Below are positions 5,128 to 27,660 of a stretch of DNA of 64,000 nt, piece after piece (positions within the stretch are counted from its first letter, which is position 1; each line of letters begins with the position of its first letter). Under the pieces are notes generated by a model. That model was not told the origin of the DNA. It saw only the letters and a program-made list of their open reading frames with translations, and made no database searches. Source of the stretch: a virus; IMG/VR virus record IMGVR_UViG_3300021185_002806. One strand, 5' to 3'. Both the position numbers and the translations under genes were made by a program.

Positions 5128-5190
5128 AGTGATTCTCTTTCTCTTTGATTACTTAATTAATATAGCACGATTCGTAATATTGTCAAGTTT
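5128..5190 (-). promoter_or_regulatory. early promoter/leader cassette with YGAKTCG (GANTC) motif
   Basis: TTGACA(5181-86)-N16-TATATT(5159-64); CGATTCG at 5168-74; near-identical to 5435-5497. Confidence 0.9.
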
Positions 5191-5434
5191 AAAATTCAGC
5201 AACTTCGTTGGTTACAAGATTACGCATTTCAAGTATTACATATGGAACCTTGGTTGACATTGTTACTTTACCAGCCCAATCACATGCGTCTTCCCAATCA
5301 ACAAAATTCATTGTTTCTACTGTTTCAAGACCTTCGGCAATCCCTGACAAATGATATTTCTTCATTTCAACTTTGAACTGCATACCTAAAAAATCTGATT
5401 TAAGTGTTTCAAGCATTTGAATTTCATTTTGCAT
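5189..5434 (-). CDS. hypothetical early protein
   Basis: ORF between two repeated promoter cassettes. Confidence 0.75.
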   Translation of the reverse strand: MQNEIQMLETLKSDFLGMQFKVEMKKYHLSGIAEGLETVETMNFVDWEDACDWAGKVTMSTKVPYVILEMRNLVTNEVAEF

Positions 5435-5497
5435 AATGATTCTCTTTCTCTCTGATTACTTAATTAATATAGCACGATTCGTGATATTGTCAAGTTT
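5435..5497 (-). promoter_or_regulatory. early promoter/leader cassette with YGAKTCG motif
   Basis: TTGACA(5488-93)-N16-TATATT(5466-71); CGATTCG at 5475-81. Confidence 0.9.
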
Positions 5498-5658
5498 TAT
5501 ATAGCAAGTATTAATTTCATTTCGTTAACAATATCTTTGTATGTTTGAATCTTCTTTTCAATCGCATACTTTTTCATTTTTACTGATGAAGTGTTACCAG
5601 CAAAAGTAGTTAGATATTTTTCTAACTTTTTGATTTCGTTTTCGTATTGTTCTATCAT
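5497..5658 (-). CDS. small hypothetical early protein (53 aa, not in ORF track)
   Basis: MIEQYENEIKKLEKYLTTFAGNTSSVK... with own promoter and gagag leader. Confidence 0.7.
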   Translation of the reverse strand: MIEQYENEIKKLEKYLTTFAGNTSSVKMKKYAIEKKIQTYKDIVNEMKLILAI

Positions 5659-5715
5659 TTTTCTCTCTCTTGATTATGTATTTAATATAACACGATTCGG
5701 GGATTTGTCAAGTTT
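5659..5715 (-). promoter_or_regulatory. early promoter with YGAKTCG motif
   Basis: TTGACA(5706-11)-N16-TATATT(5684-89); CGATTCG at 5693-99. Confidence 0.9.
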
Positions 5716-6843
5716 TTAGTCGTCCCTTTCACCATATCCATAATCGATAACAACTGGAAATCTTGGAACGCCATCATTAGATAATTCAAAGTATCTGCAA
5801 GTAGCCCACGTGGGAGTTTCAGCATTTAGGAGTTCTTTTAATTTCTCTTGTGAACCTCTAACACCTGAACTGAATTTTGTACCATTTGCAAGTTGAAGAT
5901 TAAACCTTTTTGCATAACCTGACCAGTTACCATTACCTTCCTCAATACTTACTACAGTAAATTCTTCTGTGATAAATTCTTTTCGCTTTAGAAGATTTTT
6001 ACTTCTCTTACATTCGTAAGCAGTATCCTGTCTAACCATTTGACCTTCATACCCTGCCTCTGTGTATTCACCATACATTTTATCAATTTCGGCAGTAGTA
6101 TCTGTTTTAGTAGTTTCAACTAAAACAACCATTAATGGATTAGCAAACTTTCCAACATTATCTTCTAACCATTTACTTCTTTCAGTAAATGTCATATCTG
6201 GATTGTTTTTATCAAACATATCATAAACATGATACTCAACTAATTCTGCACTCTCGGCAATTTCTTCTGGTCTACATTTTACTTTTCTAACAAGCGAAAC
6301 AATCTTTTGAAAGTCTGCTTTAAGATTATGATTGTAAAGTTCACCATCTAAAACTACACTAGGATTATTATCAATTATAGTTTGTAGAGTTTTCATAATG
6401 TGCGGACAACTATTGATTGGCTTTCCGCTCCTTGAATTCATACCATGTTTATCAACTAAACATCTAATACCATCTAGTTTCGGTTGTGTGTAACCGCTAG
6501 TAACTGGCTTCTTTGTAAAATCATTAGCTAACATAGGTTTGAATAGTTCGTAACTATCAACATCATCTATGTTTTCAAAATATTCTTTATCTGCTTTTTG
6601 GTCCCAACTAGATTTTGCTTCTGAAATGGCTTGGGTCTTGGCAGTTGTTCCATTTGCTTTGCCAACATTCTTAGCAATAGACATATTCCATTCGCTAGTA
6701 ACTTTCTGACCATCAATCAACCCGGCAATAGTTCTTGTACCAGCAACATCATCCGAATCAAAACCGTATTCTACAGTCCAAATCCTTAATTTGCCCTTTG
6801 TATCTCTTTTATATAAACTCGCCAAACTTGTGATATTTTGCAT
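5716..6843 (-). CDS. ATP-dependent DNA ligase
   Basis: Motif I QPKLDGIR, LDGELY, EGQMVR, K.K and C-terminal PRFP. Confidence 0.95.
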   Translation of the reverse strand: MQNITSLASLYKRDTKGKLRIWTVEYGFDSDDVAGTRTIAGLIDGQKVTSEWNMSIAKNVGKANGTTAKTQAISEAKSSWDQKADKEYFENIDDVDSYELFKPMLANDFTKKPVTSGYTQPKLDGIRCLVDKHGMNSRSGKPINSCPHIMKTLQTIIDNNPSVVLDGELYNHNLKADFQKIVSLVRKVKCRPEEIAESAELVEYHVYDMFDKNNPDMTFTERSKWLEDNVGKFANPLMVVLVETTKTDTTAEIDKMYGEYTEAGYEGQMVRQDTAYECKRSKNLLKRKEFITEEFTVVSIEEGNGNWSGYAKRFNLQLANGTKFSSGVRGSQEKLKELLNAETPTWATCRYFELSNDGVPRFPVVIDYGYGERDD

Positions 6844-6871
6844 ATTTTCTCCTGATCCTGATTATGTATAT

Positions 6872-6899
6872 ATAATAACATGGAATGCTATTTTGTCAA
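6872..6899 (-). promoter_or_regulatory. early sigma70-like promoter for ligase
   Basis: TTGACA-N16-TATTAT with extended TG. Confidence 0.8.
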
Positions 6900-7280
6900 G
6901 TTTTTTTCAGCATTTCGGTATGCTTTTAGCATAACTTCCTGCATATCAAATGCTTCAATTTCCCAAGGACGCTTTAAGTAAGGAACATCAGAACACTCAA
7001 ATAGTGGATGTTCTTTTCTTACATCTTGTTTAATATGTACAAATTCGTGGAATATGCTTGTAAGTAAATCATCTTCACTCAAACCCTTACGTACACGCAT
7101 TGTATATTCACGGTATTCATCACCGCTTATTACGTCTGCATCAACTTTGATATTAGGGCGAATTTCAATATCTATTTCTATATTCTTGTGCCGTGGGAGC
7201 AAGTAGTCCTTAGCAAACCAAAGTGCCTTAACTACCAATTCTTTCTCTTTTTTCAGGCCGCCTTTTATAGAATATAGCAT
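6888..7280 (-). CDS. HExxH zinc metallopeptidase-like phage protein
   Basis: HEFVHIKQ and PWEIEA motifs. Confidence 0.75.
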   Translation of the reverse strand: MLYSIKGGLKKEKELVVKALWFAKDYLLPRHKNIEIDIEIRPNIKVDADVISGDEYREYTMRVRKGLSEDDLLTSIFHEFVHIKQDVRKEHPLFECSDVPYLKRPWEIEAFDMQEVMLKAYRNAEKNLTK

Positions 7281-7332
7281 ATTTTTCTCTCATTGATATT
7301 TACTAGGATATTCTTGGTATTAAATGCGTAGA

Positions 7333-7938
7333 TTATTGTGCTACGTTGTCTCCGAATTCAGAGTAATTGTGAAAAACATAGTTCCAAAGTTGACTGATAT
7401 TTTCAATTTCTGAACCTAACTTTAGAGCATATGTTGAAATCTGATTTGATACAGAATTATAATCAACATCATCTAACAGACAATCTTCAAGCATTTTTGT
7501 AACGCATTCTTTTACTTGAACATAACGCATGTTTTCTAGTTTACGTGCAACCCATTTCTTACCTGCATAACGTCCTGTCTGCATACGTACTTTTGGGTCA
7601 CGTGTAATGCAAGTGTATCCTTCTGATTCATAGATTTCAGAAAATAACTGATACTCAGATTGTAAATCTTCTTTATCAACATCACCTAATTCTTCATAAG
7701 AAACAGTCCATTCATCTTTTTTAGTACTGCTAAGAATTCGTAGGAAAGTTGTAGTAGAACCTGATTGAGCAGAATCTTTTCCTGAAAGAGCATATGCGGC
7801 TTTTGAAAACGCATTTGTAACTGTTACGTTCTGCTTATAATTTTCTTGTGAAGTTTGCCAAATGTGATACATTTTTCGAGTATCATTTGCAAAAATGCAA
7901 AATGTATGGGGAACTTTAATTGTTTCTAACTCTGACAT
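7333..7938 (-). CDS. hypothetical early protein
   Basis: Long ORF with own promoter. Confidence 0.75.
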   Translation of the reverse strand: MSELETIKVPHTFCIFANDTRKMYHIWQTSQENYKQNVTVTNAFSKAAYALSGKDSAQSGSTTTFLRILSSTKKDEWTVSYEELGDVDKEDLQSEYQLFSEIYESEGYTCITRDPKVRMQTGRYAGKKWVARKLENMRYVQVKECVTKMLEDCLLDDVDYNSVSNQISTYALKLGSEIENISQLWNYVFHNYSEFGDNVAQ

Positions 7939-7967
7939 ACTAAGTCCTTTTTTCTGAGTATGTATAT

Positions 7968-7995
7968 ACTATAACACGATTCGCTAGTTTGTCAA
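7968..7995 (-). promoter_or_regulatory. early promoter with YGAKTCG motif
   Basis: TTGACA(7990-95)-N16-TATAGT(7968-73); CGATTCG at 7977-83. Confidence 0.9.
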
Positions 7996-7997
7996 GT

Positions 7998-8480
7998 TTA
8001 TGGAGAGTATTCGAAATTTTGAGTATCATCATTAATGCTAATTTGTTTAGCACCATTACTGATATGAAAATGAGTGGCCATCGGAGTAAGTGGTGATAGT
8101 GTTACAACTTTTTCTATTCCTTTTTTCTTAGCAAGTTCTAAAACTTTTTTTACTATTTCTTTTCCTGCTCCACGTTTACGTGACCATACGGTATAAGCAA
8201 CTGCAACTTTATTATCTTTTTTTAGATACGCAAGTTCACTCATCATGTCTAACTCACGTACACTTGTTGGTACGTCAGGAGTGAATGCGACACAAATAAT
8301 TGCTTCTATGTTTTCCTCATATTGTAGTCCGTAAATTTTGCGTCCATTAGTAATTCTCCATCCCAAAGTTAACTCTGGTCTAACTGGATCTTCTGTAACA
8401 TCGATATCGTCTAGTTCAACTAATTCTGTTCCCTTGACCCATCTAAAGTAATCATTAATTTTATCTTTAACTATTCTCAA
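7998..8480 (-). CDS. GNAT-like acetyltransferase-fold protein
   Basis: YTVWSRKRGAGKE resembles the acetyl-CoA binding motif; A..FH..NGA. Confidence 0.6.
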   Translation of the reverse strand: MRIVKDKINDYFRWVKGTELVELDDIDVTEDPVRPELTLGWRITNGRKIYGLQYEENIEAIICVAFTPDVPTSVRELDMMSELAYLKKDNKVAVAYTVWSRKRGAGKEIVKKVLELAKKKGIEKVVTLSPLTPMATHFHISNGAKQISINDDTQNFEYSP

Positions 8481-8492
8481 AATACAATCTCT

Positions 8493-9389
8493 TTATTCAA
8501 ACAGACTGCCAAAGGCATCTGTTTGGTTAGGGTTAATACGCAACTGTTTTGGATAACCTGTTCTTTCTTTTTTTATTAGTTGCGTCCACTTACTTTTGTC
8601 ATTTGGTAAGTTATATTTCTTTGCAATATAATCATCACGCATCTTTTCATCATCTTTACGAGTTTCAGTATCACTCCAAGTTGATCCAGCCGTCATTTCT
8701 TTCAGCATTATATTACGCAACATATAAGTTCCTTTGTTTGCCATTACACAAGAAACTATAAATTCATCATCTTCACCACCAAGTATGGGTTTTGTACCTA
8801 ATGGATGTACATTAAAGTACTCGTCCATCATTAAACGTTCTGGATTGTTTCGTAGAAAAAACATAGTACCTTTCATGTGGGTAAGTTTTCTATCGAATAC
8901 AAATTCTGCATTCCAGTCTACATCTTTGTAGTCTTTATCTACTCCATTAAATTTGTCATAGAAAGCCCCATCGCCCGGTCTTTGGTCGTTGTGCGGCGAG
9001 AATAACGTAACATCACTAAACTTTCCCGGATTGCTACGTAGAGCATCGACAATGTTGATATGAGTGTGGTCAAAATTAGGATGCATATTAAGGATTGCAT
9101 CACTATCTGCAAAGATACCCCACTCCTCATTTGTATCATAGAAATAATTAAATAGTACATTTCTTGCACTTGCAGGAGGAATAGGATTGTCAAGACGGTC
9201 GATATACACAACCCGAGGATCATTCCAATATTCCACTTCATCAAAGTCCATAGCGAGAATTCGTATCTCAAGTTCTTTGTCATAATCTAACCACCACTCT
9301 ACTTGCTTATTATGATTAACACTTCTCTTATTTCTTGTCTCTGCATTATCACGTGACCCATGATATGCAATGATATGAATTGCTTTCAT
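8493..9389 (-). CDS. glycosyltransferase-like protein (GT-A fold)
   Basis: ARN...FADSD (DxD) and GGEDDEF motifs. Confidence 0.65.
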   Translation of the reverse strand: MKAIHIIAYHGSRDNAETRNKRSVNHNKQVEWWLDYDKELEIRILAMDFDEVEYWNDPRVVYIDRLDNPIPPASARNVLFNYFYDTNEEWGIFADSDAILNMHPNFDHTHINIVDALRSNPGKFSDVTLFSPHNDQRPGDGAFYDKFNGVDKDYKDVDWNAEFVFDRKLTHMKGTMFFLRNNPERLMMDEYFNVHPLGTKPILGGEDDEFIVSCVMANKGTYMLRNIMLKEMTAGSTWSDTETRKDDEKMRDDYIAKKYNLPNDKSKWTQLIKKERTGYPKQLRINPNQTDAFGSLFE

Positions 9390-10993
9390 TATTTTATACC
9401 TATCAACATAAACCTATTGTATCGGTCACAATCTTTGGTTCCAACAAATAGTATTTCAGACATTATATACTTTTCTTGCAATTCTGTCAAGTCATTAACA
9501 GTGTTTATATGTTCATCAATTTCATGGAAATCATTCGTTTGTATAGCTACAACTGTGCCTGGTTTGATTTTATTAAACCATTCTTCTGTCATATGTTCTG
9601 CACTTGTATTGATAACTAAGTCATGTTTATCATAATCGTAGTCATATGCGTCTTCTACTAAGCCTGAGTACGTATTATTGAACTGATTAAGTTTGTTACT
9701 AAATTTTATTGCTTCTGGATCCATATCAATATTTGTAATATGATGTACAATATTTCTTTTGTGTGTCCAGAATGTCGATATACCCAACCAACCACCTATG
9801 AATACTGCATCTTCAAAGCGTCTATTTAACTTAACTAAATTATCAATTAACCATGTTTTGCTTTCTACTTGATAATTAGAATGTGCGTCTACGATGTTTA
9901 CTTCTGGAGCTTCCTTGAATGCTCCCATTAACATACCAAAATATGGATCTTGTTCTGTATTAAAGTACTCATACATGAAATGGATACATCTTTCAGGGTT
10001 GAATCTATTCTTTATACCACTGTAAAGATATTGTAAAAATATTTGTAAATGTTCAGACTTATATTTCTTATCCCATATAAGTTTTTCTATAGCATTAAAT
10101 ACGTGGTCTTGGTTGCTATCAATAACAGCCAATCTCATTAATTCTAAGTCTTCTACATTTGGATGATTTGTCCACTCAGCATATCGTTGAATACCATTTA
10201 GCATATATCTACCATCAGGGTATGTCGTATCGAATTCGACTATTGGTTGTGCCTTCCAATTCTTTCTTTGCTTAAACCAAGTGTTCAACCATTTCCAATT
10301 ATTAATTCTGTGTAACTTATCACCTTTGCCCACGTTAACAGTACCATAATTTTCGCCCATTATGGCCCCTAATAAGATTTCTGCACGAAATCCTACATCC
10401 TCTAATGGGGTCTTCCATTCTTTTAATTTGGTTCTTCTATCTTGTGTTGCAATGCCACTTGCTAGTTTAGTGCTTTCTCTAAATGCACCTTTCCACGCAT
10501 TAAAGGCTGTTGTATTAAAACGTGTTTCATTAGAAACATGTTCTATTGGTAAGTAAGGAAATCCACGCCTTGCTACTTCTGATGTAACATCAACACCTGG
10601 AAACTCTACATGAGCCCAAGCCTTATCAAAGAATGCTTCACGGGCAAATAGCTTAACACCGCCGTAGCCGTATGTCATTCCTGTTGCTGGATTTGTTGCT
10701 CTCCAAACATGTGTGCATTGTGCTGAACATGTTTCGGGATATACTTCATCTGTTGTGCTTGGTATATATGAAAAGTCGAAATCATCAACAATCCATGCAT
10801 CGCCATCTACAACAAAGAAATGGTCAGTCTTTGATTGTCTTGCACATTCTTTATGAGCATTATAGATACCATCTACGTCTGCTACATTAACCACACGTTG
10901 TGGGAAACCTGACCTGTCTTTTATTCTGTCATAGTTTTCTTGTGAAAAATCGTTCTTATATGTTAGATAGAATATATCCAATAATGGTTGCAT
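9389..10993 (-). CDS. glycosyltransferase-like N-domain fused to SAM-methyltransferase-like C-domain
   Basis: FFVVDGDA (DxD) and YGYGGVK in N-half; FIGGWLG, IDMDP, INTSAEH in C-half. Confidence 0.65.
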   Translation of the reverse strand: MQPLLDIFYLTYKNDFSQENYDRIKDRSGFPQRVVNVADVDGIYNAHKECARQSKTDHFFVVDGDAWIVDDFDFSYIPSTTDEVYPETCSAQCTHVWRATNPATGMTYGYGGVKLFAREAFFDKAWAHVEFPGVDVTSEVARRGFPYLPIEHVSNETRFNTTAFNAWKGAFRESTKLASGIATQDRRTKLKEWKTPLEDVGFRAEILLGAIMGENYGTVNVGKGDKLHRINNWKWLNTWFKQRKNWKAQPIVEFDTTYPDGRYMLNGIQRYAEWTNHPNVEDLELMRLAVIDSNQDHVFNAIEKLIWDKKYKSEHLQIFLQYLYSGIKNRFNPERCIHFMYEYFNTEQDPYFGMLMGAFKEAPEVNIVDAHSNYQVESKTWLIDNLVKLNRRFEDAVFIGGWLGISTFWTHKRNIVHHITNIDMDPEAIKFSNKLNQFNNTYSGLVEDAYDYDYDKHDLVINTSAEHMTEEWFNKIKPGTVVAIQTNDFHEIDEHINTVNDLTELQEKYIMSEILFVGTKDCDRYNRFMLIGIK

Positions 10994-10996
10994 GAC

Positions 10997-11320
10997 CTAG
11001 TTTACATCATCTGGCTTTGTTTCACTAGTTCCTAACATTGCTTCTGGATCACCCATCCAAATCTCGGTTTCTTCACCATCTATGTCAACGGTCATTGATT
11101 CTGTCCATCTTGCATGTTCCATTAGTACCCACTGTCCGGCTACTACTGATTCTTGCTCAGGTCCCACTGCATAGACTTGCGCCCAACGTGGTCTAATGCC
11201 ACGCTCGCCTGCTGACATTTTAGAATCATCTAAAACGATAACTCCGCCTTTTGTTGTTTTTTCCCCTTTATCCAAGTTCTTCAAAAGAACTCGGTCCCTG
11301 ATTGGTCTTAAACTCGCCAT
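10997..11320 (-). CDS. groES: co-chaperonin GroES-like
   Basis: LRPIRDRVL, TKGGVIV, VYAVGP. Confidence 0.9.
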   Translation of the reverse strand: MASLRPIRDRVLLKNLDKGEKTTKGGVIVLDDSKMSAGERGIRPRWAQVYAVGPEQESVVAGQWVLMEHARWTESMTVDIDGEETEIWMGDPEAMLGTSETKPDDVN

Positions 11321-11328
11321 GTTTTCCT

Positions 11329-11760
11329 CTATTTCTTTTTAGATGTTTTTTTTGAAGTCTTCTTAACTTCTGATGCTTTTACAAAATTACCTTCTTCGTC
11401 TTCTACCCAATCTTCTTCTGTAACTTCCTCAGCTACTGGATCAGGTTCAGTAATAGTTTCAGTTTCGACAACTGGCTCTACCCAATCATCTTCTGTTTGC
11501 TTTGGTGCATCCTGTTGTGTCCTTGCCGCATCATCTTCATTATCGATTTTTATGGATGATTTAACTACCGCACGTGGATTATTTACGTTATAATGTTCAC
11601 GTGCAATTTCATCGGCAGATTTTATAACTCTACCACCACGACCCAATTGGTCGCCTCGGGCATTAGTAGACGTATTGCCTACTGAGATATTCTTTTCCGA
11701 TTTCGCCATCAGTTTAGCAAGGTCTACATTGATGCCACGCATACTTTTATATTGTTTCAT
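11329..11760 (-). CDS. hypothetical protein
   Basis: VGNxxxNARGDxLG motif typical of large phages; acidic tail. Confidence 0.7.
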   Translation of the reverse strand: MKQYKSMRGINVDLAKLMAKSEKNISVGNTSTNARGDQLGRGGRVIKSADEIAREHYNVNNPRAVVKSSIKIDNEDDAARTQQDAPKQTEDDWVEPVVETETITEPDPVAEEVTEEDWVEDEEGNFVKASEVKKTSKKTSKKK

Positions 11761-11975
11761 TGTATATCCTCGTTTTCATTTATTTCAAAAACTTTTTTTA
11801 ATAAAGTTTTTATTTGTGTTTCGACATAATTCTTCTTATCATGTCTTTTTACAAATGGGTTATTTGACTCATACGAATTATGAATTTGATTAGTTGCACA
11901 TTTTACCAGACGTTCTTCTTTTGACGTTAAACAACGTTTGCTATTAGGAAATCTAACTATTGTATCATTTGTCAT
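11757..11975 (-). CDS. hypothetical protein
   Basis: Translationally coupled ORF. Confidence 0.6.
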   Translation of the reverse strand: MTNDTIVRFPNSKRCLTSKEERLVKCATNQIHNSYESNNPFVKRHDKKNYVETQIKTLLKKVFEINENEDIQ

Positions 11976-12535
11976 TTTAAAAACTCATTTATATCCAACT
12001 CGTATTTGATGCTATCAACTTTGTGTATACCTATTAAGTATAGCACATAACTGGCAACACTACTTCCTCTGCCGACACCCCATATAATATTGTTCTTTCT
12101 CAGTGTATCAACAATATAAACGCATACTTTAAGTACGTCTATTATACCGTATTTATCATATAAATATAACTCATTGCACGTTCTGTTCATTTGAGGCAAA
12201 TCATCAGGACATTTATCTAATACGTAATTCCATATGTCCATATTCTTGTATTCGTCAGGAATAAACCATTCTTTCTGATTTTCATTATCAAATTCAGCTA
12301 TTTCCTTAGATAATTTCTGTATGGGTTGAATTAAGTCTTTTTCAACATTATTTAATGATAATGCTTTATTGTACTTTTCAATATCATCATGCCACTCCAT
12401 TTCAGTGACTTTAGATATGTCTTCGCCATTATAAAGCATTTCGTATAAATCTTGACGATTATATACGATTCTTCCGTACTGGTCTTTAAGACCGTCAATC
12501 TTTGATGATTTTAGGTTTCCAGCCATTAATGTCAA
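11972..12535 (-). CDS. DNA polymerase III alpha (DnaE)-like fragment
   Basis: WGVGRGSSVASYVLYLIGIHKVDS matches the DnaE GRGS region; only 187 aa. Confidence 0.85.
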   Translation of the reverse strand: MTLMAGNLKSSKIDGLKDQYGRIVYNRQDLYEMLYNGEDISKVTEMEWHDDIEKYNKALSLNNVEKDLIQPIQKLSKEIAEFDNENQKEWFIPDEYKNMDIWNYVLDKCPDDLPQMNRTCNELYLYDKYGIIDVLKVCVYIVDTLRKNNIIWGVGRGSSVASYVLYLIGIHKVDSIKYELDINEFLK

Positions 12536-16768: not shown

Positions 16769-19630
16769 CTATTCAGTATCAGAAGTCAATAACAAAGTGT
16801 CCCCGCCTATAGCTGTTGTGTTAATACTTATATGCTTTTCCCATACATATGGAGTTAAATAATTAGGTCCACCTGCTTTAGGACCTGTTCCACTTAAACC
16901 TGATCCACCAAATGGCTGTGTCTCTATGACTGCTCCGATTTGGTCTCTATTTACATAAACATTTCCTACATTCAATGTCTTTGCAATATGTTCATAAAAT
17001 CTATTAACACGTGAATGAACACTCAGTGTTAATCCAAATTTACTTTTGTTTATAAAATCTAATATCTCTGGTAACTCAGACTTTTCGTAAACATACACAT
17101 GCAATACTGGGCCAAAGATTTCTTCATCAAAATATTTCTTATAATCTGATACAGTATATGCACATGGTGGGACAACTAGATTTGGTAAAGTTTTTCCATT
17201 ACGTGATTTCATTGCAATAAGTTCTTCTGTTTCTTCCAGTACCCCAATACGTGCTTGAATACGTGAATATGCCGGTCCATCGATAACCCTAGATATATCT
17301 GTATTCAAATCATCTGCATGTCCAAGTGTCATTACTTTTATCTTTTGTGCTAACATGCGAATAACTTCCGCACTATTATCTTTTTGAACAAAGAGAAATC
17401 TGGTCGCACTGCATCGTTGTCCTGCACTATCAAATGCACCATATGTAACATCTTCTACTACTTGCTCTGGTAAACATGTTGAATCTGTTATCATACAGTT
17501 TATGCCACCTGTTTCTGCGATAAACGGTATAATGGGACCATCACGTTCTGCAATTAACCTTTGAATGGCTTTAGCACTACTATGAGAGCCTGTGAACGTT
17601 ACACCCGCTATACGCTCATCTTTGACAGCCATAGACGCACTCTCAATGCTAGGGTCACACATACGCAATGCATCTACTGGAATGCCAACATAATGCATAC
17701 TTGCAATCGCAACCTTGGCAATCTCAACTGTCTGTGGTGCTGGTTTTGCCAGTACTGTGTTTCCTGTAATCAATGCGGCTACTACTGGTCCTAAAAATAT
17801 CGCATAAGGGAAGTTCCATGGGGCAATCACCATCCAAACTCCACGTGGATTAACTAATGTAGTATTATGCTCTCCTGTATACCCCAACTTAACATCTACA
17901 TTGTACATTTTTTCTGCCTGTTCAACATAGTATCTTATGAAGTCGATTGTTTCTCTTACTTCTGCTATTGCGTTAGGATATGTTTTATAAGAATATTTTA
18001 CAAGTCTATTTGCCGCACTAACCATTTCTGCTTCTATACTGTCTGCACATGCTAATAGTAATTTCTTTCTGTGTTCAAATGTTGTATTGGCCCATTGGGG
18101 CTGATAGTTTTCTAAAAGTGTTATCGTATCTTTTACTGAAATTACTTCTTCATCGTGTGGAGGATGCGTTGGCGAATCCAACATGTAATCAATCATTGCA
18201 GGATCTGATAGGTCGTAACCTTTGCTATTCTTTCTTCCAGGATATAATTGATCCCAAGTTTTTAATGATGTTTTTTTCTTTTTGACTTCTATAAATGGGT
18301 CAGTCACTTCTAAGCTATATACAAAACTAGTGTTTGCCCCATTTTCTAATAATCGTCTTATTAGGTATGCAAGTAAATCTTTGTACTCTCCTACCGGAGC
18401 ATAAATTCTAATTTTATGATTTGATGTTTTTCTTATGTAATCAAATAAACTATTTCCCATACCAAACAATTTTTGAAATTCAAAGTCTTCATTGCAATCA
18501 TTACAGTTTTTTAATGCATGAATAATTGCTGATACAGTATATGGATTATGTGTTGCAAATGCACTTTTTAAATTTTTAGATTGTACTAATTTTCTAGCAC
18601 ATGCTAGATAAGATATGTCCGTATTTTCTTTTCTAGTAAATACTGGGTATTCTAGTCCATCTTGTTGAGCGTATTTTATCTCAGTATCCCAATATGCACC
18701 TTTAACGAGCCGTATAACTACCCTTGTGTCGTTATGCTCTGCTATTGTCTGTAAGGTATTAATAGTCCAAAATGCACGTTTCTGATAAGCCTGTAGAGCA
18801 AATCCAACAGTATCATTTTTAAATTTATAAGTTGTTAATAATTCTTCTAATACCATAATACTAATATCTAGTCTACGTGCCTCTTCTGCATCGATAAACA
18901 TAGTAGTATTGTTTTCTTCGCATACTCTAGCTATAGCGGCTAATTTAGGTACTAGTGTGTGTAAAACATCTATGTGGTTCTTTAATTCGTATCTAGGGTG
19001 TATTGCGGACAGTTTTATAGATATAGACTCTTTTGATTTTGTTGCCGCCTCAAGATATCTTTCATAATATAAATTCGCATCTTCCCAATTTGTTGCGGCT
19101 TCGCCCAACATATCAAACGAATAAGTGTATCCAGGTTTTTTCTTTTTGATTGCAGTATCAATACTATTGCCCATAACAAATAATGTACCCATATGTTTTA
19201 CCATAGATTTTGTTATTTTTCTTACCGTTGGCCATCCAAGCCTAGCAACTATGCCTTCATATGCAGAAAGTTGTTGTGCCTGCGTCAAAGCGGTGCTGGC
19301 AACTTTAGAATAAAAACTATTATTTGCTAAGTTATTCCATTGAGCGTTTGATAACTTATCTTTTATAAGTTCATCCTGCGTATCACTATCTGGTGTTCGT
19401 AAAAGAGATTCACAAAGGGTCATAAGTGCCATACCTTCAGGTGCACTCATATCATATGACTTCATAATTTGAGTCAGGTAATGTTCTTCGGTAAGTTTAG
19501 ATTGAATTTGTTTGGCATCAGTCATAATAGACTGACGGTCTTTACTAGATAAACGACACGCAATTAATAGTTTTTCAACTATATCTAATTCGTTTTTTCT
19601 ATAATAGTCATTATGTGGATAACACTTCAT
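16769..19630 (-). CDS. putA: bifunctional proline dehydrogenase / P5C dehydrogenase
   Basis: SFDMLGE, SIKLS, RLVKGAYW, FATHN, YLIRRLLENGAN; ETGG, SAGQRCSA, EEIFGPVL, QPFGG. Confidence 0.97.
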   Translation of the reverse strand: MKCYPHNDYYRKNELDIVEKLLIACRLSSKDRQSIMTDAKQIQSKLTEEHYLTQIMKSYDMSAPEGMALMTLCESLLRTPDSDTQDELIKDKLSNAQWNNLANNSFYSKVASTALTQAQQLSAYEGIVARLGWPTVRKITKSMVKHMGTLFVMGNSIDTAIKKKKPGYTYSFDMLGEAATNWEDANLYYERYLEAATKSKESISIKLSAIHPRYELKNHIDVLHTLVPKLAAIARVCEENNTTMFIDAEEARRLDISIMVLEELLTTYKFKNDTVGFALQAYQKRAFWTINTLQTIAEHNDTRVVIRLVKGAYWDTEIKYAQQDGLEYPVFTRKENTDISYLACARKLVQSKNLKSAFATHNPYTVSAIIHALKNCNDCNEDFEFQKLFGMGNSLFDYIRKTSNHKIRIYAPVGEYKDLLAYLIRRLLENGANTSFVYSLEVTDPFIEVKKKKTSLKTWDQLYPGRKNSKGYDLSDPAMIDYMLDSPTHPPHDEEVISVKDTITLLENYQPQWANTTFEHRKKLLLACADSIEAEMVSAANRLVKYSYKTYPNAIAEVRETIDFIRYYVEQAEKMYNVDVKLGYTGEHNTTLVNPRGVWMVIAPWNFPYAIFLGPVVAALITGNTVLAKPAPQTVEIAKVAIASMHYVGIPVDALRMCDPSIESASMAVKDERIAGVTFTGSHSSAKAIQRLIAERDGPIIPFIAETGGINCMITDSTCLPEQVVEDVTYGAFDSAGQRCSATRFLFVQKDNSAEVIRMLAQKIKVMTLGHADDLNTDISRVIDGPAYSRIQARIGVLEETEELIAMKSRNGKTLPNLVVPPCAYTVSDYKKYFDEEIFGPVLHVYVYEKSELPEILDFINKSKFGLTLSVHSRVNRFYEHIAKTLNVGNVYVNRDQIGAVIETQPFGGSGLSGTGPKAGGPNYLTPYVWEKHISINTTAIGGDTLLLTSDTE

Positions 19631-19890: not shown

Positions 19891-19929
19891 ATATTTATTA
19901 TTTTAGTCGATAATCGATTTAAAACAAGC

Positions 19930-20033: not shown

Positions 20034-20081
20034 AGTATTTACTACAATTTGTGGTTTAGTTTACTTACAACATATTGTATG

Positions 20082-20267
20082 TTATAGCGTTTCGATATCA
20101 AGTAGTTCGGGATCCATATCTAATGAGGTATGTACATTCCAAACTTCTTTTTCGTGTATTAATGAAAAATGTGCCGCTTCTACTTCTGTCATTAGTTTCA
20201 TTTCAGTCTCATTGCCATGTTCAATAAGATATAAAAAATGTTCTTTCTTTTTCTTCTTGGTCGTCAA
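20082..20267 (-). CDS. small hypothetical protein
   Basis: ORF adjacent to upstream stop. Confidence 0.5.
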   Translation of the reverse strand: MTTKKKKKEHFLYLIEHGNETEMKLMTEVEAAHFSLIHEKEVWNVHTSLDMDPELLDIETL

Positions 20268-20600: not shown

Positions 20601-20645
20601 TATACTCCTTATGTTATACTTAATATAGCATTATTTTGATAAATG

Positions 20646-21233
20646 TCAAGTTTTAATTAGACATATTTTTACATCACTAAATTTCGCATCTTCGCTATCA
20701 AACATACTCCAAGTGTTTCCTGTTCGTTTAACAAAGTCATCTGCTAGTTTATTCTCTGCTTCAATATAATGATACATATGATGGTCGTCCACATACCATT
20801 GATAATTTGGATATGATATATCCCATCCGCCTGCTTCTTTCCACCAATCAAAGCATTCTTTGTTTCCTCGTCTTACTAGTAAGATTTGTGAGTTTTCTAT
20901 GTTATCTTTTAACCAATCTAAACTATATGCAAATTGGTGACACTTAATCATTTTTGTTTTTGAGTTTTTTTCTTGAAATGCCATGTCGCAATCTTTTTTA
21001 AACTGAGAAACATTATCACTATAAAATCTTTCAAGGCTATGAAAATTATGACCTAGTTCCATACCTGGTCCCCAATATGCACCCTTGTGTCCTGAAAATT
21101 TTCCATGAGTGTAGAGTCGCCAGTCTGTTTCATCTGACGTATTGTAACCAAAGTTCTCTGCGATAACCTGGCCTACACCAGACCACCTAGAACCGGGCGC
21201 ACCTACTAAAAATGTATAATCAAGCATTATCAA
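20646..21233 (-). CDS. P-loop / sulfotransferase-like protein
   Basis: FLVGAPGSRWSG, IKCH, LLVRR. Confidence 0.55.
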   Translation of the reverse strand: MIMLDYTFLVGAPGSRWSGVGQVIAENFGYNTSDETDWRLYTHGKFSGHKGAYWGPGMELGHNFHSLERFYSDNVSQFKKDCDMAFQEKNSKTKMIKCHQFAYSLDWLKDNIENSQILLVRRGNKECFDWWKEAGGWDISYPNYQWYVDDHHMYHYIEAENKLADDFVKRTGNTWSMFDSEDAKFSDVKICLIKT

Positions 21234-21462
21234 AATATTTCTTTAATTCGTCAAATCCTCCGATGTATGTTTCATCTAACCAAATCTGAGGAGCAGTACG
21301 AGGTACTATATTCAGTTTTCCACATTCTTCAAATAACGTTGTACGTGCATCGTTATCAATTTGTATATTATATTCAGTTATTTCTACACCCTTCATTTTC
21401 AATAAATTCTTAGCTTGTACACAATATGTACATGCATTTTTGCTGTATACCGTTGCTTTCAT
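21220..21462 (-). CDS. glutaredoxin
   Basis: CTYC, TAPQIW, IGGFDEL. Confidence 0.92.
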   Translation of the reverse strand: MKATVYSKNACTYCVQAKNLLKMKGVEITEYNIQIDNDARTTLFEECGKLNIVPRTAPQIWLDETYIGGFDELKKYFDNA

Positions 21463-21496
21463 AAAATACTTTTTCCTTTCTAATAGTATGTACTTA

Positions 21497-22282
21497 TCAT
21501 TTTTCAACAAATGATTTTTCTACTACATACTCACCTGGTGTCTTATTATTTCCTTCTGAGAACCCAAGTCCTTCTAACCATTCTTTTAATTCTAAATTCA
21601 TTTCCATTGAACCACAAACCATAACTCTGTCATGTTCTTTAGAGAATTCACTTAGTCCTAATTGTTCTTGTACTTTGCCTTTATACATTGCAGTAGTAAC
21701 TCTGCCCATATTAACAAATTCTTCACGTGTTACTGTTGGATAAAACTTAAATTTACCTTGAGTAATTTCGCCCCATATTTCATGAGCATTCAATCCTTCT
21801 AAGAACTCTTTATATGCAAGTTCCTTAACTGTTCGTGTACCCCATACTAATATTACATTATCATAATCTTCATAGGTTTCTAATCCTCTTACCAAACTCA
21901 TAAAGGGTGCAACTCCAGTTCCTGTTGCTAGTAAATATAGATTTTTACCAGGTTTTAAATTTGGTATAACCAACGTGCCTACTGCTTTAGAATTTACTAA
22001 TAATTCATCGCCTTCTTTTATATGTTGCAGTCTGCTTGTTAATGGTCCATCTGGTACCTTAATTGAGAACCACTCCATATATTCTTCATAGTTTGGTGAT
22101 GCAACTGAATATGCTCTCATTATAGGCTTATTTCTTTGTAACTTTTCTGACCAATTATCTAAGCCAATCATTAAAAATTCACCATCACGAAATCTAGTAC
22201 CCTTATCACGGGTAGTCTTTATATGCATTAAGTTATCTGTATAATGTTTTACCTCTAATACTGTTTCTCTTATGATAGCCAT
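21497..22282 (-). CDS. fpr: ferredoxin-NADP+ reductase
   Basis: RAYSVAS, GPLTSRL, TGTGVAPF, MVCGS. Confidence 0.95.
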   Translation of the reverse strand: MAIIRETVLEVKHYTDNLMHIKTTRDKGTRFRDGEFLMIGLDNWSEKLQRNKPIMRAYSVASPNYEEYMEWFSIKVPDGPLTSRLQHIKEGDELLVNSKAVGTLVIPNLKPGKNLYLLATGTGVAPFMSLVRGLETYEDYDNVILVWGTRTVKELAYKEFLEGLNAHEIWGEITQGKFKFYPTVTREEFVNMGRVTTAMYKGKVQEQLGLSEFSKEHDRVMVCGSMEMNLELKEWLEGLGFSEGNNKTPGEYVVEKSFVEK

Positions 22283-23214
22283 TTGTCTACTTCATCCTGA
22301 TAATCATTGATTAATTTGTCTGCAACTTTAAATTTGTTAGTTGAAAGCAACTGTTCTATACCATTTAGTTGTTTATATTTTTTATGCCAAGTTAAGTAAG
22401 TATCACTTAATGTCAGTCCAGGAATGTTCTTAGATAATATCTTTGCTAACGTTTTTGCATCTGAACAATGCAATTCTTTAAAACCTAATGCAAGGCCGCC
22501 ATTTGCTAAAATATTATCTCTCACTCCTATTTCATTACGTAACTTTAGTGACAACTCTGTAATATTATCATAATAGCTTTGATAAGAGAAATTACTGCGA
22601 TAGCCTTCATTTTTAACTTCTTGTAAATGTGTTATAGCCAGCATTTCAGCAGGCGATTTAGAAATTATGGCAATATGGGTATCAATTTCTAAATCATATA
22701 CATCTTTAAAAAGTTTAGGGTGCGAATACGTATCACCGATAATGTAATATTCATGTTGTCCAAATATCTGATGCTTGAATTTTATATTTCTTTCAGTCAT
22801 ATATTTACTATGACGGTCTTTCATATTTGCAACTTCTAGCGATTGTATCTTTGTCAATGCTTCCTGAAATGATATACCATGGCGTAACGCATGCCAATTT
22901 GCAACATCTAATGCACCAACATCATAAAATGTTTGTCCAGTACCGTGCCTAGGCGGAAACACATTCGACAAGAAAGTTAATGGTTTAACTGAGCCATCAT
23001 TTAGCAATGCAACTAAGTCATACTTTACACCATCATGTTCTGCTACATATGTACTACCTTCTGGTGGGGCACCTGCTGTATGCTTAACAAACGTTGGCGC
23101 CCAATACCCTGCATCTTCAAAATCTATTTCAATCTCTGGGTGCAATAATAACCATAGGCATATTTTTAGAAAATCGCCGCCGGCACCTGCATTATAACTC
23201 AAATATATATTCAT
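22270..23214 (-). CDS. hypothetical protein, possible sulfotransferase/P-loop fold
   Basis: N-terminal YNAGAGGDFL. Confidence 0.55.
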   Translation of the reverse strand: MNIYLSYNAGAGGDFLKICLWLLLHPEIEIDFEDAGYWAPTFVKHTAGAPPEGSTYVAEHDGVKYDLVALLNDGSVKPLTFLSNVFPPRHGTGQTFYDVGALDVANWHALRHGISFQEALTKIQSLEVANMKDRHSKYMTERNIKFKHQIFGQHEYYIIGDTYSHPKLFKDVYDLEIDTHIAIISKSPAEMLAITHLQEVKNEGYRSNFSYQSYYDNITELSLKLRNEIGVRDNILANGGLALGFKELHCSDAKTLAKILSKNIPGLTLSDTYLTWHKKYKQLNGIEQLLSTNKFKVADKLINDYQDEVDKWLS

Positions 23215-23372
23215 TTATTTTCCCGGTAAAACGCATATTGGTAATGTTGGTACTACAATACAGCCTACAAATTTCATTACTGTTAGTTTTACTCTATCTT
23301 CTTTTTCTTTTTCTGTTTTAGGGGTAGCACACGCACTGACTAATAATAAAATTAGTATTAAAAAAACTTTCA

Positions 23373-23696
23373 TTAATGATTTCGCCCACCATCGAATACA
23401 CATACAAAGTACATATCGCCTGAGCCTTGATTATGAACACGATGAAAAACACCATCTTCAATCAGTACACAATCACCTTCAATAACGTACAATTCTTTAT
23501 CATCAAGTTCCATAATACCGTGTCCTTTTAAAAACATATAGACTTCTTCTTGTCCTTCATGTTTATGTCCACTGGTAGATTTTCCTGAATGCAATGTAGT
23601 TGAACTGACAACTAAATTTCTCAGTAAGGTATTATCCGTTACTGTATACGTTTCATTGTCTTTTACTGTTTGTCCGTCAATTTCCCATAAATTCAT
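23373..23696 (-). CDS. cupin-domain protein
   Basis: GHKHEGQEEVY...GVFHRVHN. Confidence 0.9.
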   Translation of the reverse strand: MNLWEIDGQTVKDNETYTVTDNTLLRNLVVSSTTLHSGKSTSGHKHEGQEEVYMFLKGHGIMELDDKELYVIEGDCVLIEDGVFHRVHNQGSGDMYFVCVFDGGRNH

Positions 23697-24103
23697 TTGC
23701 ATATAGTTACCCTCTTACGTAAATCACTTGAACTAAACCTATGGTCTCGTTCATTAAAATGTATATCTATCTCCCTTTTCTTACAAATATCACGACCTGT
23801 AAAATCTTTGTCTCTATATTCTACGCCGAGAATACGAATGTCAATATGCATACCACTTAGAATGTCTTCCAAGTCTTGTTCAGTTGCATATGGAATAATT
23901 TCATCTACATATTTACATGCACGTAGTTGTAAGTATCTTTCGACAACAGTTTGTACTGGTTTATTTTTTGTCGGTCTGTCCATTGTTGGGTCTGTTTGCA
24001 ATCCCACAATAAGATAATCGCATTGTGCTTTTGCTTCTTCTAACATCAATGTATGACCTGCGTGTAACAAGTCAAATGAACTACATGTAAATCCTATCTT
24101 CAT
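23693..24103 (-). CDS. glycerol-3-phosphate cytidylyltransferase (TagD-like)
   Basis: FDLLHAGH (HxGH), SSSDLR. Confidence 0.9.
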   Translation of the reverse strand: MKIGFTCSSFDLLHAGHTLMLEEAKAQCDYLIVGLQTDPTMDRPTKNKPVQTVVERYLQLRACKYVDEIIPYATEQDLEDILSGMHIDIRILGVEYRDKDFTGRDICKKREIDIHFNERDHRFSSSDLRKRVTICK

Positions 24104-24495
24104 AATACGTGTACCTTTTGTCTTATAGTTTCAATTAAATTTCCTAATCCATTTCTACGTTGTTGAGATAATAATTGTTGAATGTTTAAACTTTGAAAAT
24201 CTTCATGCTTGATTTCTTTTGCCTCTTCAACTGGTATATCTGAAAAACAATCTGCAACAATACTAGTAATACCTTTTGTAATCATTGCATCACTATCGTA
24301 ATACACTTTTACTTTATCTTCTACTACACCTACATCAATCCAAATCTTTGACATGCACCCACCTACAAGTCTATCATCAGTTCTTAATTCATATGGTAGC
24401 GTAGTAGACTTTTTTGCAAGTTCTATTAGATAAACTAATCTTTCATTGCCATCATCAAAAAGACTTAGATTGTCTGCCCATTCATTTATTTTCAT
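24100..24495 (-). CDS. sufE: SufE-family Fe-S sulfur acceptor
   Basis: VGGCMSKIW, DSDAMITKG, LSQQRRNGL. Confidence 0.9.
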   Translation of the reverse strand: MKINEWADNLSLFDDGNERLVYLIELAKKSTTLPYELRTDDRLVGGCMSKIWIDVGVVEDKVKVYYDSDAMITKGITSIVADCFSDIPVEEAKEIKHEDFQSLNIQQLLSQQRRNGLGNLIETIRQKVHVL

Positions 24496-24722
24496 GAAAA
24501 CTTTTTCCAAAGTTTATGTAATACAAAAAACCAAATACCGTTAATTGCTGGTTCTACTAATGCAACTGACCCTGCTTCCCATAAAGAGGCATCCGTCATT
24601 ATTTTAACTACTGTCATAGCAATAATAATGTGGCCACATGTATAAATTAATGCAAGTGTCAATGAGTCACTTTTTACTGCTAAGTCTTTTAAAGTTTTAA
24701 ATATTCCTTCATTAAACTCCAT
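24492..24722 (-). CDS. DUF2061-like membrane protein
   Basis: Two TM segments, ALVEP.IN..WF..LH. Confidence 0.65.
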   Translation of the reverse strand: MEFNEGIFKTLKDLAVKSDSLTLALIYTCGHIIIAMTVVKIMTDASLWEAGSVALVEPAINGIWFFVLHKLWKKFS

Positions 24723-24734
24723 AGTGTCCCTTTT

Positions 24735-25082
24735 TTATATTATATTTCTCACAATAACAATACTAGAAATACCTAACCATAAAGTATTAAAGATTACTAA
24801 CGTAGGTAATCCTTTTTCTCTACTAGCCCATATTAAAAGACTGCTTGTAAAAAGTGTTAAAAAATGAAATTGCCATACTTCAATACCGTATAATAATGCA
24901 GGAAGAATGACTAATGCTTTTGCATACCAGGCTGATGCTTCTACAACGTTATAATTTACCCAATATTCTTTCTTACCATAAAGTTTTACACATTCGATAA
25001 TTTTTCTAACCCCTACCAATCTGTATACGATTGTTGTAACTGTTAAAAATAATCCTAAAGTTAATAATACCTGAAATAACAT
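24735..25082 (-). CDS. membrane protein
   Basis: Four hydrophobic segments. Confidence 0.7.
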   Translation of the reverse strand: MLFQVLLTLGLFLTVTTIVYRLVGVRKIIECVKLYGKKEYWVNYNVVEASAWYAKALVILPALLYGIEVWQFHFLTLFTSSLLIWASREKGLPTLVIFNTLWLGISSIVIVRNII

Positions 25083-25083
25083 A

Positions 25084-25359
25084 CTAGTTCCTCATTAAAA
25101 AATCTGCACAATCCTGTTCGTTTCTAAAATTGATTGTTGCAATTCTTGTATAGTTATCAATGTGACATGAGATATCTTTTTGAGCATATCTTTTCACTAA
25201 ATCTTTCCTGAACTTCCTCATAGCATCATTATTTAAAAATAATGAAGACTTAGCATTATTGGATTCTTCAACAGGAACAACTTGTGCTACAATAGAATAA
25301 GGAAGACCAACACCTGGGTTAGTCTTTGTCTTCGCTATATCTATTTTATATGTTTTCAT
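25084..25359 (-). CDS. hypothetical protein
   Basis: Likely start MKTYKID. Confidence 0.6.
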   Translation of the reverse strand: MKTYKIDIAKTKTNPGVGLPYSIVAQVVPVEESNNAKSSLFLNNDAMRKFRKDLVKRYAQKDISCHIDNYTRIATINFRNEQDCADFLMRN

Positions 25360-25360
25360 A

Positions 25361-26509
25361 TCACATCTTTGTTGTTGTATTTTCATACGTTTTATTATAT
25401 TGACTATTTGTTCTTATAAATGTAGCACATTTTGAAAGATATTTCAACCTTTTTGCACCTGCATATGTACAAGTAGAACGTATACCTCCAAGAATTGTTT
25501 GTATTGTATCTGCTACCTTTCCTCTATATGGTACAAGTACTTCACGACCTTCACTAGCACGATAATCTTTTAATCCACCAAAGTGTTTTTGATTTGCCGC
25601 ATCTGAACTCATTCCGTAGAACTTTATGAATTGCTTTTCTTCTACTTTTTGTTTGCGATTATCTAAATGCTCCCCAACTTCATATTCTAATTCATTTGTT
25701 GTATAAAACTTAGTAATTACTTTACCGCCGCCTTCATCATGGCCGGCAAGCATACCGCCAAGCATAACATAATCTGCCCCACCTGCAAAGGCTTTAGAGA
25801 TATCTCCAGGGCAATTACACCCACCGTCAGCAATAATGTGACCGCCAAGTCCGTGTGCGGCGTCGGCACATTCGATGACCGCCGATAACTGCGGATATCC
25901 CACACCAGTTTGAATCCGAGTAGTGCAAACAGACCCGGGACCAATACCCACTTTAACAATATCTGCTCCATTTAGTATTAACTCCTGTGTTTGGTCTGCC
26001 GTTACAACATTGCCTGCTATGATTACTATATTAGGATAATTTTCACGAAATTTACCTACAAACTCTGTAAATCTTTGACTATACCCATTTGCTACATCAA
26101 TGCAAACATATTGTAAGATACCGTTTAGTTGTTCGTATACTGTTCTAAATTTTTCTTCATCTGGAGAAGTGATGCCGATACTCATAGCAACATTTTTACT
26201 TCGTCTTGCATCTGGAAAATCATTAATGAAAAACTCTACAATCTGTTCTACTGAATATGTTTTCACAAGGCAGGTAAAAATATTTTGTTGTGCAAGTGCA
26301 TCTGCCATTACCAAGGTACCTACGCCGTCCATATTGGATGCCATAAGTGGGACACCTCTATAATGTCTATGCAATTCTGTCTGTGATTTTGTATTGCGAA
26401 ATGTAAACCCACGTTCTAAGTCAACTTCCTTGCGAGAGCCTAATGTGCTTCGTTTAGGTCTAATTAGAACATCATCATAGTTAAGTTTAATTTCATTTTC
26501 AATATGCAT
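25361..26509 (-). CDS. guaC: GMP reductase
   Basis: [41 protein letters not shown]. Confidence 0.96.
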
Positions 26510-26535
26510 AATTTACCTTAAAGTATTCAAAGGCC

Positions 26536-26784
26536 TTAAAGACCTTTGATAACTTCCCTAATTTCTTCTACCGCTGTAGAATCCACGTACTCACTTCGAA
26601 ATATTGCATACTTCTTAGTTGAGTAATTATATACACCAACTTCTGTGTATTCCCCATTGTCGTTTTTACTAAAACAACTATATAGACCATTACGGCCTTT
26701 GAACGGTTTTAGAAGATTAACTGCCTCTTCCATTGAAACCGACATTTTACGAGGCTTGCGCCCACGTTGAGTTTTGTTTGCCAC
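26536..26784 (-). CDS. hypothetical protein
   Basis: GTG start after SD gagga; promoter at about 26873-26901. Confidence 0.65.
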   Translation of the reverse strand: MANKTQRGRKPRKMSVSMEEAVNLLKPFKGRNGLYSCFSKNDNGEYTEVGVYNYSTKKYAIFRSEYVDSTAVEEIREVIKGL

Positions 26785-26909
26785 TTCATATATCCTCTTC
26801 GTCTGTAGTTAGCAAAGTTGTGTTTGTAGTTTAATCACATTTCGGTGTTAGTTCCTCATTTGAACTGTTATTAGTATACAACAAAATTCATTAAATTGCA
26901 AGAACTATT

Positions 26910-27599
26910 TTAGTTCCAACGATAAAAAATGTGCATGCCAATTCTTCCTACTAAATCCATTCGATGGTCTTTGCTCCATGCAGGTGCCACATAAGTTGCG
27001 TGATAATGTGTTGCGCCCTCAGTGATGCCTCGTAACCCATCATTATGCATAATGTCCCAAGCAATCATCTGTGCCTTGACCCAATTCTCTGAGCCTAATG
27101 GAATATCATCTGACTTGCCATCACAATACCAACTAAACTGACACTTATGACGAATAGGAATATATACACGTTCACTATCATCTAAATCAGGATACTGTTT
27201 TGTCTTCCAGCTTTCCTTCATTTTAGCTTGATATACTACTCCACATATACTATCTGGGTAATGTGCATGTTTTACACGATTAAGAACAACATCAGCAACT
27301 GCCGCCATACCAGCCTTGTTATCGATACTTGATTCAAAGAAAATGTTTTGTGCTAAACAAAACTCATCCTGAAATTCATATGGGTCAATTAGAAAGAATT
27401 CAATATCTTTTCTATTTGAGATATCAATAGTTTCTACTATAGTTGTTTTTACTGTATCAATATCTTTAGTTTTTTCGCCTGAGTCTACATTAAGTGTAGC
27501 ACTTGCGGCATAGGCGGCAAATCCTACTAATATACCCATCACTGTTAGGTTCATTAGTGTAACGAACCCACTACCCATTACTTTTAGAAATTTCAACAT
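26910..27599 (-). CDS. SleB-like cell wall hydrolase (Hydrolase_2)
   Basis: CLAQNIFFES, VLNRV, CQFSWYCDG, GATHYH, HIFY. Confidence 0.92.
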   Translation of the reverse strand: MLKFLKVMGSGFVTLMNLTVMGILVGFAAYAASATLNVDSGEKTKDIDTVKTTIVETIDISNRKDIEFFLIDPYEFQDEFCLAQNIFFESSIDNKAGMAAVADVVLNRVKHAHYPDSICGVVYQAKMKESWKTKQYPDLDDSERVYIPIRHKCQFSWYCDGKSDDIPLGSENWVKAQMIAWDIMHNDGLRGITEGATHYHATYVAPAWSKDHRMDLVGRIGMHIFYRWN

Positions 27600-27632
27600 T
27601 TATATCTGCCTCGCTTTTCTGATTATGTATAT

Positions 27633-27660
27633 ACTATAACATGATTCGCTATTTTGTCAA
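27633..27660 (-). promoter_or_regulatory. early promoter with YGAKTCG motif
   Basis: TTGACA(27655-60)-N16-TATAGT(27633-38); TGATTCG at 27642-48. Confidence 0.9.

Follow-up and report, generated by a model that had tools for sequence, protein, structure and literature searches.

The first genes of a marine phage may be tied to the cell-cycle machinery of its host. In the 64,000-nucleotide stretch of IMG/VR virus record IMGVR_UViG_3300021185_002806, here called the window over its whole length, we found a group of predicted sigma70-type promoters that carry a GANTC box at a fixed place in the spacer separating the −35 from the −10 element. Comparison with related viral DNA confirmed that these box promoters form a real, conserved and clade-wide promoter class. 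The box resembles the site of GcrA, the sigma70 cofactor of Alphaproteobacteria that reads DNA methylation by CcrM. This assignment is partly supported, by the resemblance itself and by one clue to the host. The main reference for the comparison was G002, a complete IMG/VR genome of 342,607 bp with terminal repeats, which is syntenic with the window at 80–88% nucleotide identity. Its T4-type major capsid protein shares 65–69% identity with the capsid proteins of jumbo myophages of the Rak2/PA5oct/Phosso group. Synteny with G002 and capsid similarity to this group together place the phage, by sequence, among the uncultured marine jumbo myophages.

Exactly five sites in the window match TTGACA-N6-CGAATCRTG-N-TATAnT, all on the minus strand (5159, 5466, 5684, 7968 and 27633; class-A promoters in Table 1), in agreement with the initial annotation of the sequence. 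Each of them pairs TTGACA with TATAnT over a 16-bp spacer, as in sigma70-type promoters, and on the opposite strand the box reads CGATTCG four times and TGATTCG once in one identical register, again as annotated. The box is present in five of the six TTGACA-N16-TATAnT sites of the window, the exception being 20622, and GANTC is absent from 10 of the 11 promoters with a 17-bp spacer, most of which had been described as devoid of the motif. A further copy had been reported 3 nt further from the −10 element in a non-coding RNA promoter; this is the TGATTCG in the manA RNA promoter, which lies 7 nt instead of 4 nt from the hexamer (centre about −22) and is placed alike in G002. All five class-A promoters have RTGn directly 5′ of the −10 hexamer, with TG at −15/−14 as in an extended −10 element. 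TGn is frequent in box-less promoters too. The conserved cassette extends beyond the box and includes an upstream AAAAC, the extended −10 TG and TAATCA at about +1 to +6. In most class-A cassettes TAATCA starts 7 nt after the −10 hexamer, and it may mark the 5′ end of the transcript. The N6 segment, which the initial annotation had called variable, does differ between the copies but is not random, being A-rich and often AAATAG.

An enrichment of the motif in promoters, proposed earlier as a check, was borne out. YGAKTCG occurs 19 times in the window against 11.2 ± 3.1 expected, and its density in non-coding DNA exceeds that in coding DNA 12-fold in the window and 7.6-fold in G002. With tRNAs left out, 8 of the 13 non-coding GANTC sites of the window fall in box promoters or their leaders, and the intergenic GANTC excess in G002 is the promoter class itself.

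Table 1. Candidate promoters, boxes and genes of the window (ORF, open reading frame; aa, amino acids; tmRNA, transfer-messenger RNA).
Feature	Position	Strand	Remarks
Class-A promoter 1	5159–5186	−	16-bp spacer; box CGATTCG at 5168–5174 (+ strand); precedes 107-aa ORF (4804–5127) without Pfam match
Class-A promoter 2	5466–5493	−	box 5475–5481; near-identical paralogue of promoter 1; 81-aa ORF (5189–5434) downstream
Class-A promoter 3	5684–5711	−	box 5693–5699; 53-aa ORF (5497–5658) downstream
Class-A promoter 4	7968–7995	−	box 7977–7983; 201-aa ORF (7333–7938) downstream
Class-A promoter 5	27633–27660	−	box TGATTCG at 27642–27648
manA RNA promoter	60492–60520	−	17-bp spacer; TGATTCG at 60504–60510
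Second GAATC, 5′ leader of promoter 1	5131–5135	−	about +20, just 5′ of start codon; fits YGAKTCK
Second GAATC, 5′ leader of promoter 2	5438–5442	−	about +20
Box-less 16-bp-spacer promoter	20622–20649	−	no GANTC; G002 orthologue likewise without GANTC
Box-less sister cassette	6872–6899	−	upstream of ATP-dependent DNA ligase gene (5716–6843)
tmRNA	63093–63409	−	two-piece, alphaproteobacterial type
PutA gene	16769–19630
TctA gene	46886–48409
ClpX gene	54448–55722

In G002, GANTC lies exactly 4 nt from the −10 hexamer in 13 of 15 forward-strand TTGACA-N16 promoters, and GANTC-N4-TATAnT was counted 19 times compared with 4 in the control. The exact pattern was also found in more than 106 stretches of IMG/VR contigs from marine viruses. 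The identity of these loci to the window ranges from 66% to 100%, and for 27 of 106 there was no alignment at all. To correct for ascertainment, the one match per locus that had triggered its retrieval was removed before further promoters were counted; the box was in register in 66 of the 93 further promoters with a 16-bp spacer. Among promoters with a 17-bp spacer at these loci, 16 of 56 have GANTC at the same 4-nt distance from the hexamer, and therefore the box is anchored to the −10 element. The variants are few: 133 distinct cassettes contain only CGAATCG, CGAATCA, AGAATCA and CGATTCG, all of which fit YGAKTCK on one strand, compared with a background of 24–31% among coding GANTC sites. 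The −10 hexamers of box promoters are mostly TATATT or TATAGT, those of the box-less 17-bp-spacer promoters of G002 mostly TATAAT. The class thus pairs a short spacer with an imperfect −10 hexamer, which is often seen in activator-dependent promoters. Chance recurrence, for which only the AT-rich composition of the DNA speaks, is refuted by these data, since none of 100 dinucleotide-preserving shuffles of the window produced a match compared with the five observed and the pattern is conserved in more than 100 contigs.

The box agrees with published GcrA sites in sequence and in position. GcrA prefers TGATTCG and more broadly YGAKTCK, and in GcrA-regulated Caulobacter promoters the site lies narrowly around −20 or at +2 to +30, whereas overlap with the −10 element is very rare (PMC4647560). 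By cryo-electron microscopy, upstream GcrA boxes were placed at −20 ± 1 or −30 ± 2, with GAATC of the PcsM box at −22 to −18 (PMC9976885). The DNA in the GcrA crystal is TGATTCG/CGAATCA (PMC5887438), which is the exact word of the promoter 5 box. If the −10 hexamer is taken as −12 to −7, from which the transcript start was deduced, the phage box spans −21 to −17 (centre −19), with GAATC on the promoter strand and 4 nt from the hexamer. The five class-A promoters fall within −20 ± 1 and the manA promoter site, at about −22, outside this range. The flanks agree with YGAKTCG/YGAKTCK, as the template strand reads CGATTCG four times and, with the manA promoter site included, TGATTCG twice. Over 249 distinct promoters, GANTC centres peak at −19/−20 and form a second cluster at +19 to +23, with almost none from −17 to +14. 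The Caulobacter regulon was reported to have the same two-zone distribution. All sites of the downstream cluster in the phage promoters stem from a single cassette family, and the cluster does not count as independent evidence. With a symmetric part of only 7 bp (CGA-N-TCG), the box is a better fit for a reader that binds as a monomer, or for a methylase, than for a dimeric operator. Hence the phage class is like the GcrA-activated, CcrM-methylated upstream-box promoters of Caulobacter crescentus (PcsM) in its sigma70-type core, in GANTC with YGAKTCG/K flanks, in a spacer box near −20 with GAATC on the promoter strand and in a second zone downstream of the start. It differs from them in that it belongs to a phage genome and not to a host regulon, combines near-consensus TTGACA/TATAnT with a 16-bp spacer and TG, and is known here from sequence alone.

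We tentatively favour, as the best single explanation, that host RNA polymerase loaded with GcrA activates these suboptimal promoters. They would be immediate-early promoters of the host (sigma70) type with a GcrA box in the −35/−10 spacer. In an alphaproteobacterial host, GcrA would travel bound to domain 2 of sigma70, and its flexible DNA-binding domain would dock on the box (centre about −19) from the side of the DNA that points away from RNA polymerase. Docking would stabilise polymerase binding and open-complex formation on a core that may be deliberately suboptimal (16-bp spacer and −10 TATATT/TATAGT instead of TATAAT). Early transcription of the class would then follow the GcrA level. 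Since the search for a methylase gene of the phage was negative, it might also follow methylation of the box adenines by host CcrM in the previous infection. The wider proposition that a widespread clade of marine jumbo phages uses host GcrA–CcrM as an immediate-early co-activator, with the success and timing of infection depending on the cell-cycle phase and, given that no phage methylase gene was detected, on the methylation imprint of the prior host, is in our opinion unlikely.

A number of observations weigh against activation by GcrA, and the first of them concern the cassette. The box promoters are paralogous copies of a single cassette about 50 nt long; the counts are therefore not independent events, and raw counts overstate independence. 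Moreover, the conserved word ends 3′ in RTGn, an extended −10 element that is recognised by RNA polymerase itself. The promoters might need no extra factor, the cassette being kept uniform by duplication and gene conversion or acting as a spacer/extended −10 element for RNA polymerase. Such an origin would account for the three cassettes within 550 bp (5159–5711) between tiny ORFs, two of them near-identical over about 50 nt, and for the conservation of the whole cassette including AAAAC, TG and the TAATCA start. The sequence R-T-G-n is a known extended −10 context, and the cassettes behave as repeats, as shown by the breaks of metatranscriptome and assembly contigs at these sites. We consider this explanation rather improbable, however, since within the cassette N6 is free to vary and the box is not. 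N6 differs between paralogues and between orthologues next to an unchanged box: promoter 4 and its G002 orthologue have an identical box and a wholly different N6. The whole promoter 3 is identical at the syntenic place in G002. The sister cassette upstream of the ligase gene shares the −35 element, N6 and the transcribed start with promoter 5 and has the box segment replaced. Between the window and G002 (about 338,260–338,300) the −35 element, N6, −10 element and transcribed start of this ligase promoter are identical and only the box segment differs, whereas uniform gene conversion would lead one to expect the reverse. Thus, the box is frozen where it is present, and where it is absent the same segment is the freest part of the cassette. 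The variable N6 and the drifting ligase box segment thus separate the box from its carrier cassette. In addition, the 17-bp-spacer promoters with GANTC at the same −10 distance are otherwise different in sequence, and TGn is no hallmark of the box promoters.

Further adverse points concern the form of the box. The centre base on the promoter strand is A in about 110 distinct cassettes compared with 3, and CcrM would not require A. The phage box also lies 1 bp nearer to the −10 hexamer than the PcsM box (4 versus 5 nt). It might be the site of a different protein, such as an early phage shut-off protein, a factor delivered with the virion or another host factor, with an incidental match to GANTC. 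The conserved word extends beyond GANTC (C/A-GAATC-R-TG) and, with its strong centre-A preference, is needed by neither methylation nor GcrA alone; the restriction of the class to one marine clade is what a clade-specific regulator would produce, and cultured phages of Alphaproteobacteria are without it. We judge a different protein to be somewhat unlikely, because the 7-bp symmetric part is short for a dimeric operator, all variants retain G, A, T and C and stay within YGAKTCK, and position and strand equal those of the upstream GcrA box. Furthermore, immediate-early promoters must fire before any phage protein exists.

The initial annotation had proposed that the promoters are wired to the GcrA/CcrM circuit of the host. 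Motif, flanks, strand and position match published boxes, the class is conserved and the tmRNA is of the alphaproteobacterial type, but the class was absent from nine cultured phages tested, including four with alphaproteobacterial hosts (Pelagibacter HTVC008M, Agrobacterium Atu_ph07, Sinorhizobium Phosso and Sinorhizobium phiM12). The pattern had no match in Atu_ph07, PA5oct, Vibrio 2.275.O and SCTP-2 and one match in Phosso. For GANTC-N4-TATAnT, none was found in HTVC008M, and the counts did not stand out from the control in phiM12 (2 versus 1), P-SSM2 (7 versus 6) and T4 (1 versus 2). When 50,697 phage records were searched with the cassette by BLAST, the matches were to promoters of Gram-positive phages and did not exceed chance level, and no cultured phage among them shares the cassette. 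Likewise, a published scan for GcrA sites in cultured phages of Alphaproteobacteria reported no positional signal (PMC9437464). In these sequence comparisons the class is confined to one marine clade.

Bacterial genomes and RNA data added little. In 401 alphaproteobacterial genomes, the box plus −10 word gave 23 matches compared with 12 in the reversed control, an enrichment too weak to use, and one genome of 2.6 Mb had five copies of an unrelated repeat ending in GGGGAATCATGGTATA(A/T)T with no −35 element upstream. In two low-GC alphaproteobacterial genomes the box stands equally far from the −10 element in promoters of the TTGAC type; the genes downstream are without Pfam match. Retrieval of orthologous promoters via the downstream proteins yielded only two informative orthologues. 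The region itself was found in 19 seawater metatranscriptome studies as assembled contigs. Such contigs end wherever they meet a repeated cassette; they therefore neither reveal transcript starts nor prove transcription. When contigs from 4 of the 19 studies were aligned to window positions 4400–8400, the breaks lay at the cassettes and the unmatched tails held further GANTC cassette variants.

The main clue to the host class is the tmRNA, which matched the alpha_tmRNA model over its full length with 127.6 bits. Phage tmRNAs usually track the lineage of the host, and the alpha-type molecule suggests a host among the Alphaproteobacteria, a class in which GcrA and CcrM are nearly universal. It is no proof, since an alpha-type tmRNA is also documented in phage Melnitz of the gammaproteobacterial OM43 (PMC9004378). 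A BLAST search with the tmRNA against the 401 alphaproteobacterial genomes detected short conserved segments only; the best matches were in genomes of 0.9–1.4 Mb and indicated no host. PutA, TctA and ClpX gave no host lineage signal either, being similar to proteins from bacteria of all classes. A scan of genome contigs for PutA found one match, in a gammaproteobacterium (38% identity), TctA was 32–34% identical in GcrA-positive and GcrA-negative genomes alike, and ClpX was 50–55% identical to all bacteria sampled. These three appear to be old genes of the phage lineage and not recent acquisitions from a host. For the major capsid protein, similarity was equally high to phages of Pseudomonas, Sinorhizobium, Vibrio and Salicola, and a host test with the protein atlas resolved the phylum only.

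CcrM is present in SAR11 and nearly all other Alphaproteobacteria (PMC3973325). We found GcrA in 71 of 301 sampled Pseudomonadota. Of five small alphaproteobacterial genomes that were tested, four had GcrA together with a PF01555 methylase of about 370 amino acids (CcrM family). The search for gcrA or ccrM homologues in the phage, also suggested at the outset, was negative: no GcrA, PF01555 or PF02086 gene was detected in any of five relatives, of which two are at least 92% complete. A weak PF01555 match in G002 was examined as a CcrM-type methylase and rejected, as the protein is of the radical-SAM/SPASM type. G002 has neighbouring radical-SAM/SPASM genes of 475 and 341 amino acids at 95,598–99,203, and the window contains a related radical-SAM ORF of 485 amino acids (40516–41973). 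With no methylase gene in the relatives, any methylation of the box would have to come from the host, and incoming phage DNA may be unmethylated, which speaks against a methylation-dependent mechanism. Depletion of GANTC was considered as a CcrM signature and discarded, as the overall value of 0.56–0.63 is accompanied by similarly low values for the unrelated AGNTC and GANCT. In the coding sequence of G002, GANTC is the lowest of 24 comparable pentamers, with AGNTC and GANCT nearly as low.

Other properties of the phage were recorded along with the promoters. The window has a G+C content of 35%, and almost all genes are on the minus strand. It encodes a tRNA cluster, the tmRNA, PutA, TctA, a GMP-reductase-like enzyme, ClpX, a GreA-like factor and an ATP-dependent ligase. 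Promoter 5 is flanked by a GreA/GreB-like gene (27664–28221, directly upstream) and a cell-wall hydrolase gene (26910–27599). The cargo of this promoter is a hydrolase of the SleB type (PF07486), which is odd for an early-type promoter. In the window and G002, several 4-bp palindromes are strongly avoided (CGCG 0.09, GATC 0.22–0.27, AGCT 0.31–0.35 and GCGC 0.29–0.46 of expectation), which by sequence looks like restriction avoidance, and TGCA is about 2-fold over-represented in both.

Strong host-type early promoters of T4-type phages are mobile cassettes, repeated before small early ORFs in plastic genome regions. The phage resembles them in its near-identical promoter units repeated between small ORFs, but the T4 early promoters lack the GANTC box, as the counts for T4 given above illustrate. 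In enterobacterial phages with Dam-sensitive promoters, such as Mu with its mom promoter, adenine methylation by the host gates transcription via GATC/Dam and occlusion by a repressor. Gating by adenine methylation is proposed here as well; the phage would instead use GANTC/CcrM and a sigma70 cofactor. Promoters with CtrA boxes in phages of Alphaproteobacteria (lytic deferment; Mascolo 2022, PMC9437464) are likewise wired to a cell-cycle regulator of the host. In that case regulator and site are different, and those phages are cultured and do not belong to this marine clade. According to work cited in PMC9437464 and PMC7987155, phiCbK-like phages carry a GcrA homologue and Sinorhizobium phages carry CcrM analogues. 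These are also phages of Alphaproteobacteria that engage the GcrA/CcrM module, but they do so with protein genes, whereas the phage described here carries a cis site and no such genes were detected.

To our knowledge, no sigma70 cofactor other than GcrA is known to read DNA methylation, and GcrA has so far been described from host regulons only. The idea of a GcrA-box promoter class in phages was not found in the searchable literature. If the tentative assignment to GcrA is true, this would be the first case of a virus borrowing this methylation reader, and in ocean metagenomes the box sequence would mark phages that infect Alphaproteobacteria. Sister cassettes with and without the box (promoter 5 and the ligase promoter) are ready-made reporter pairs. 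The class makes it testable whether infection by an abundant marine phage is gated by the cell-cycle state of the host or by methylation carried over from the last host. In the latter case, the imprint that the previous host leaves on virion DNA would constitute an epigenetic memory between infections.

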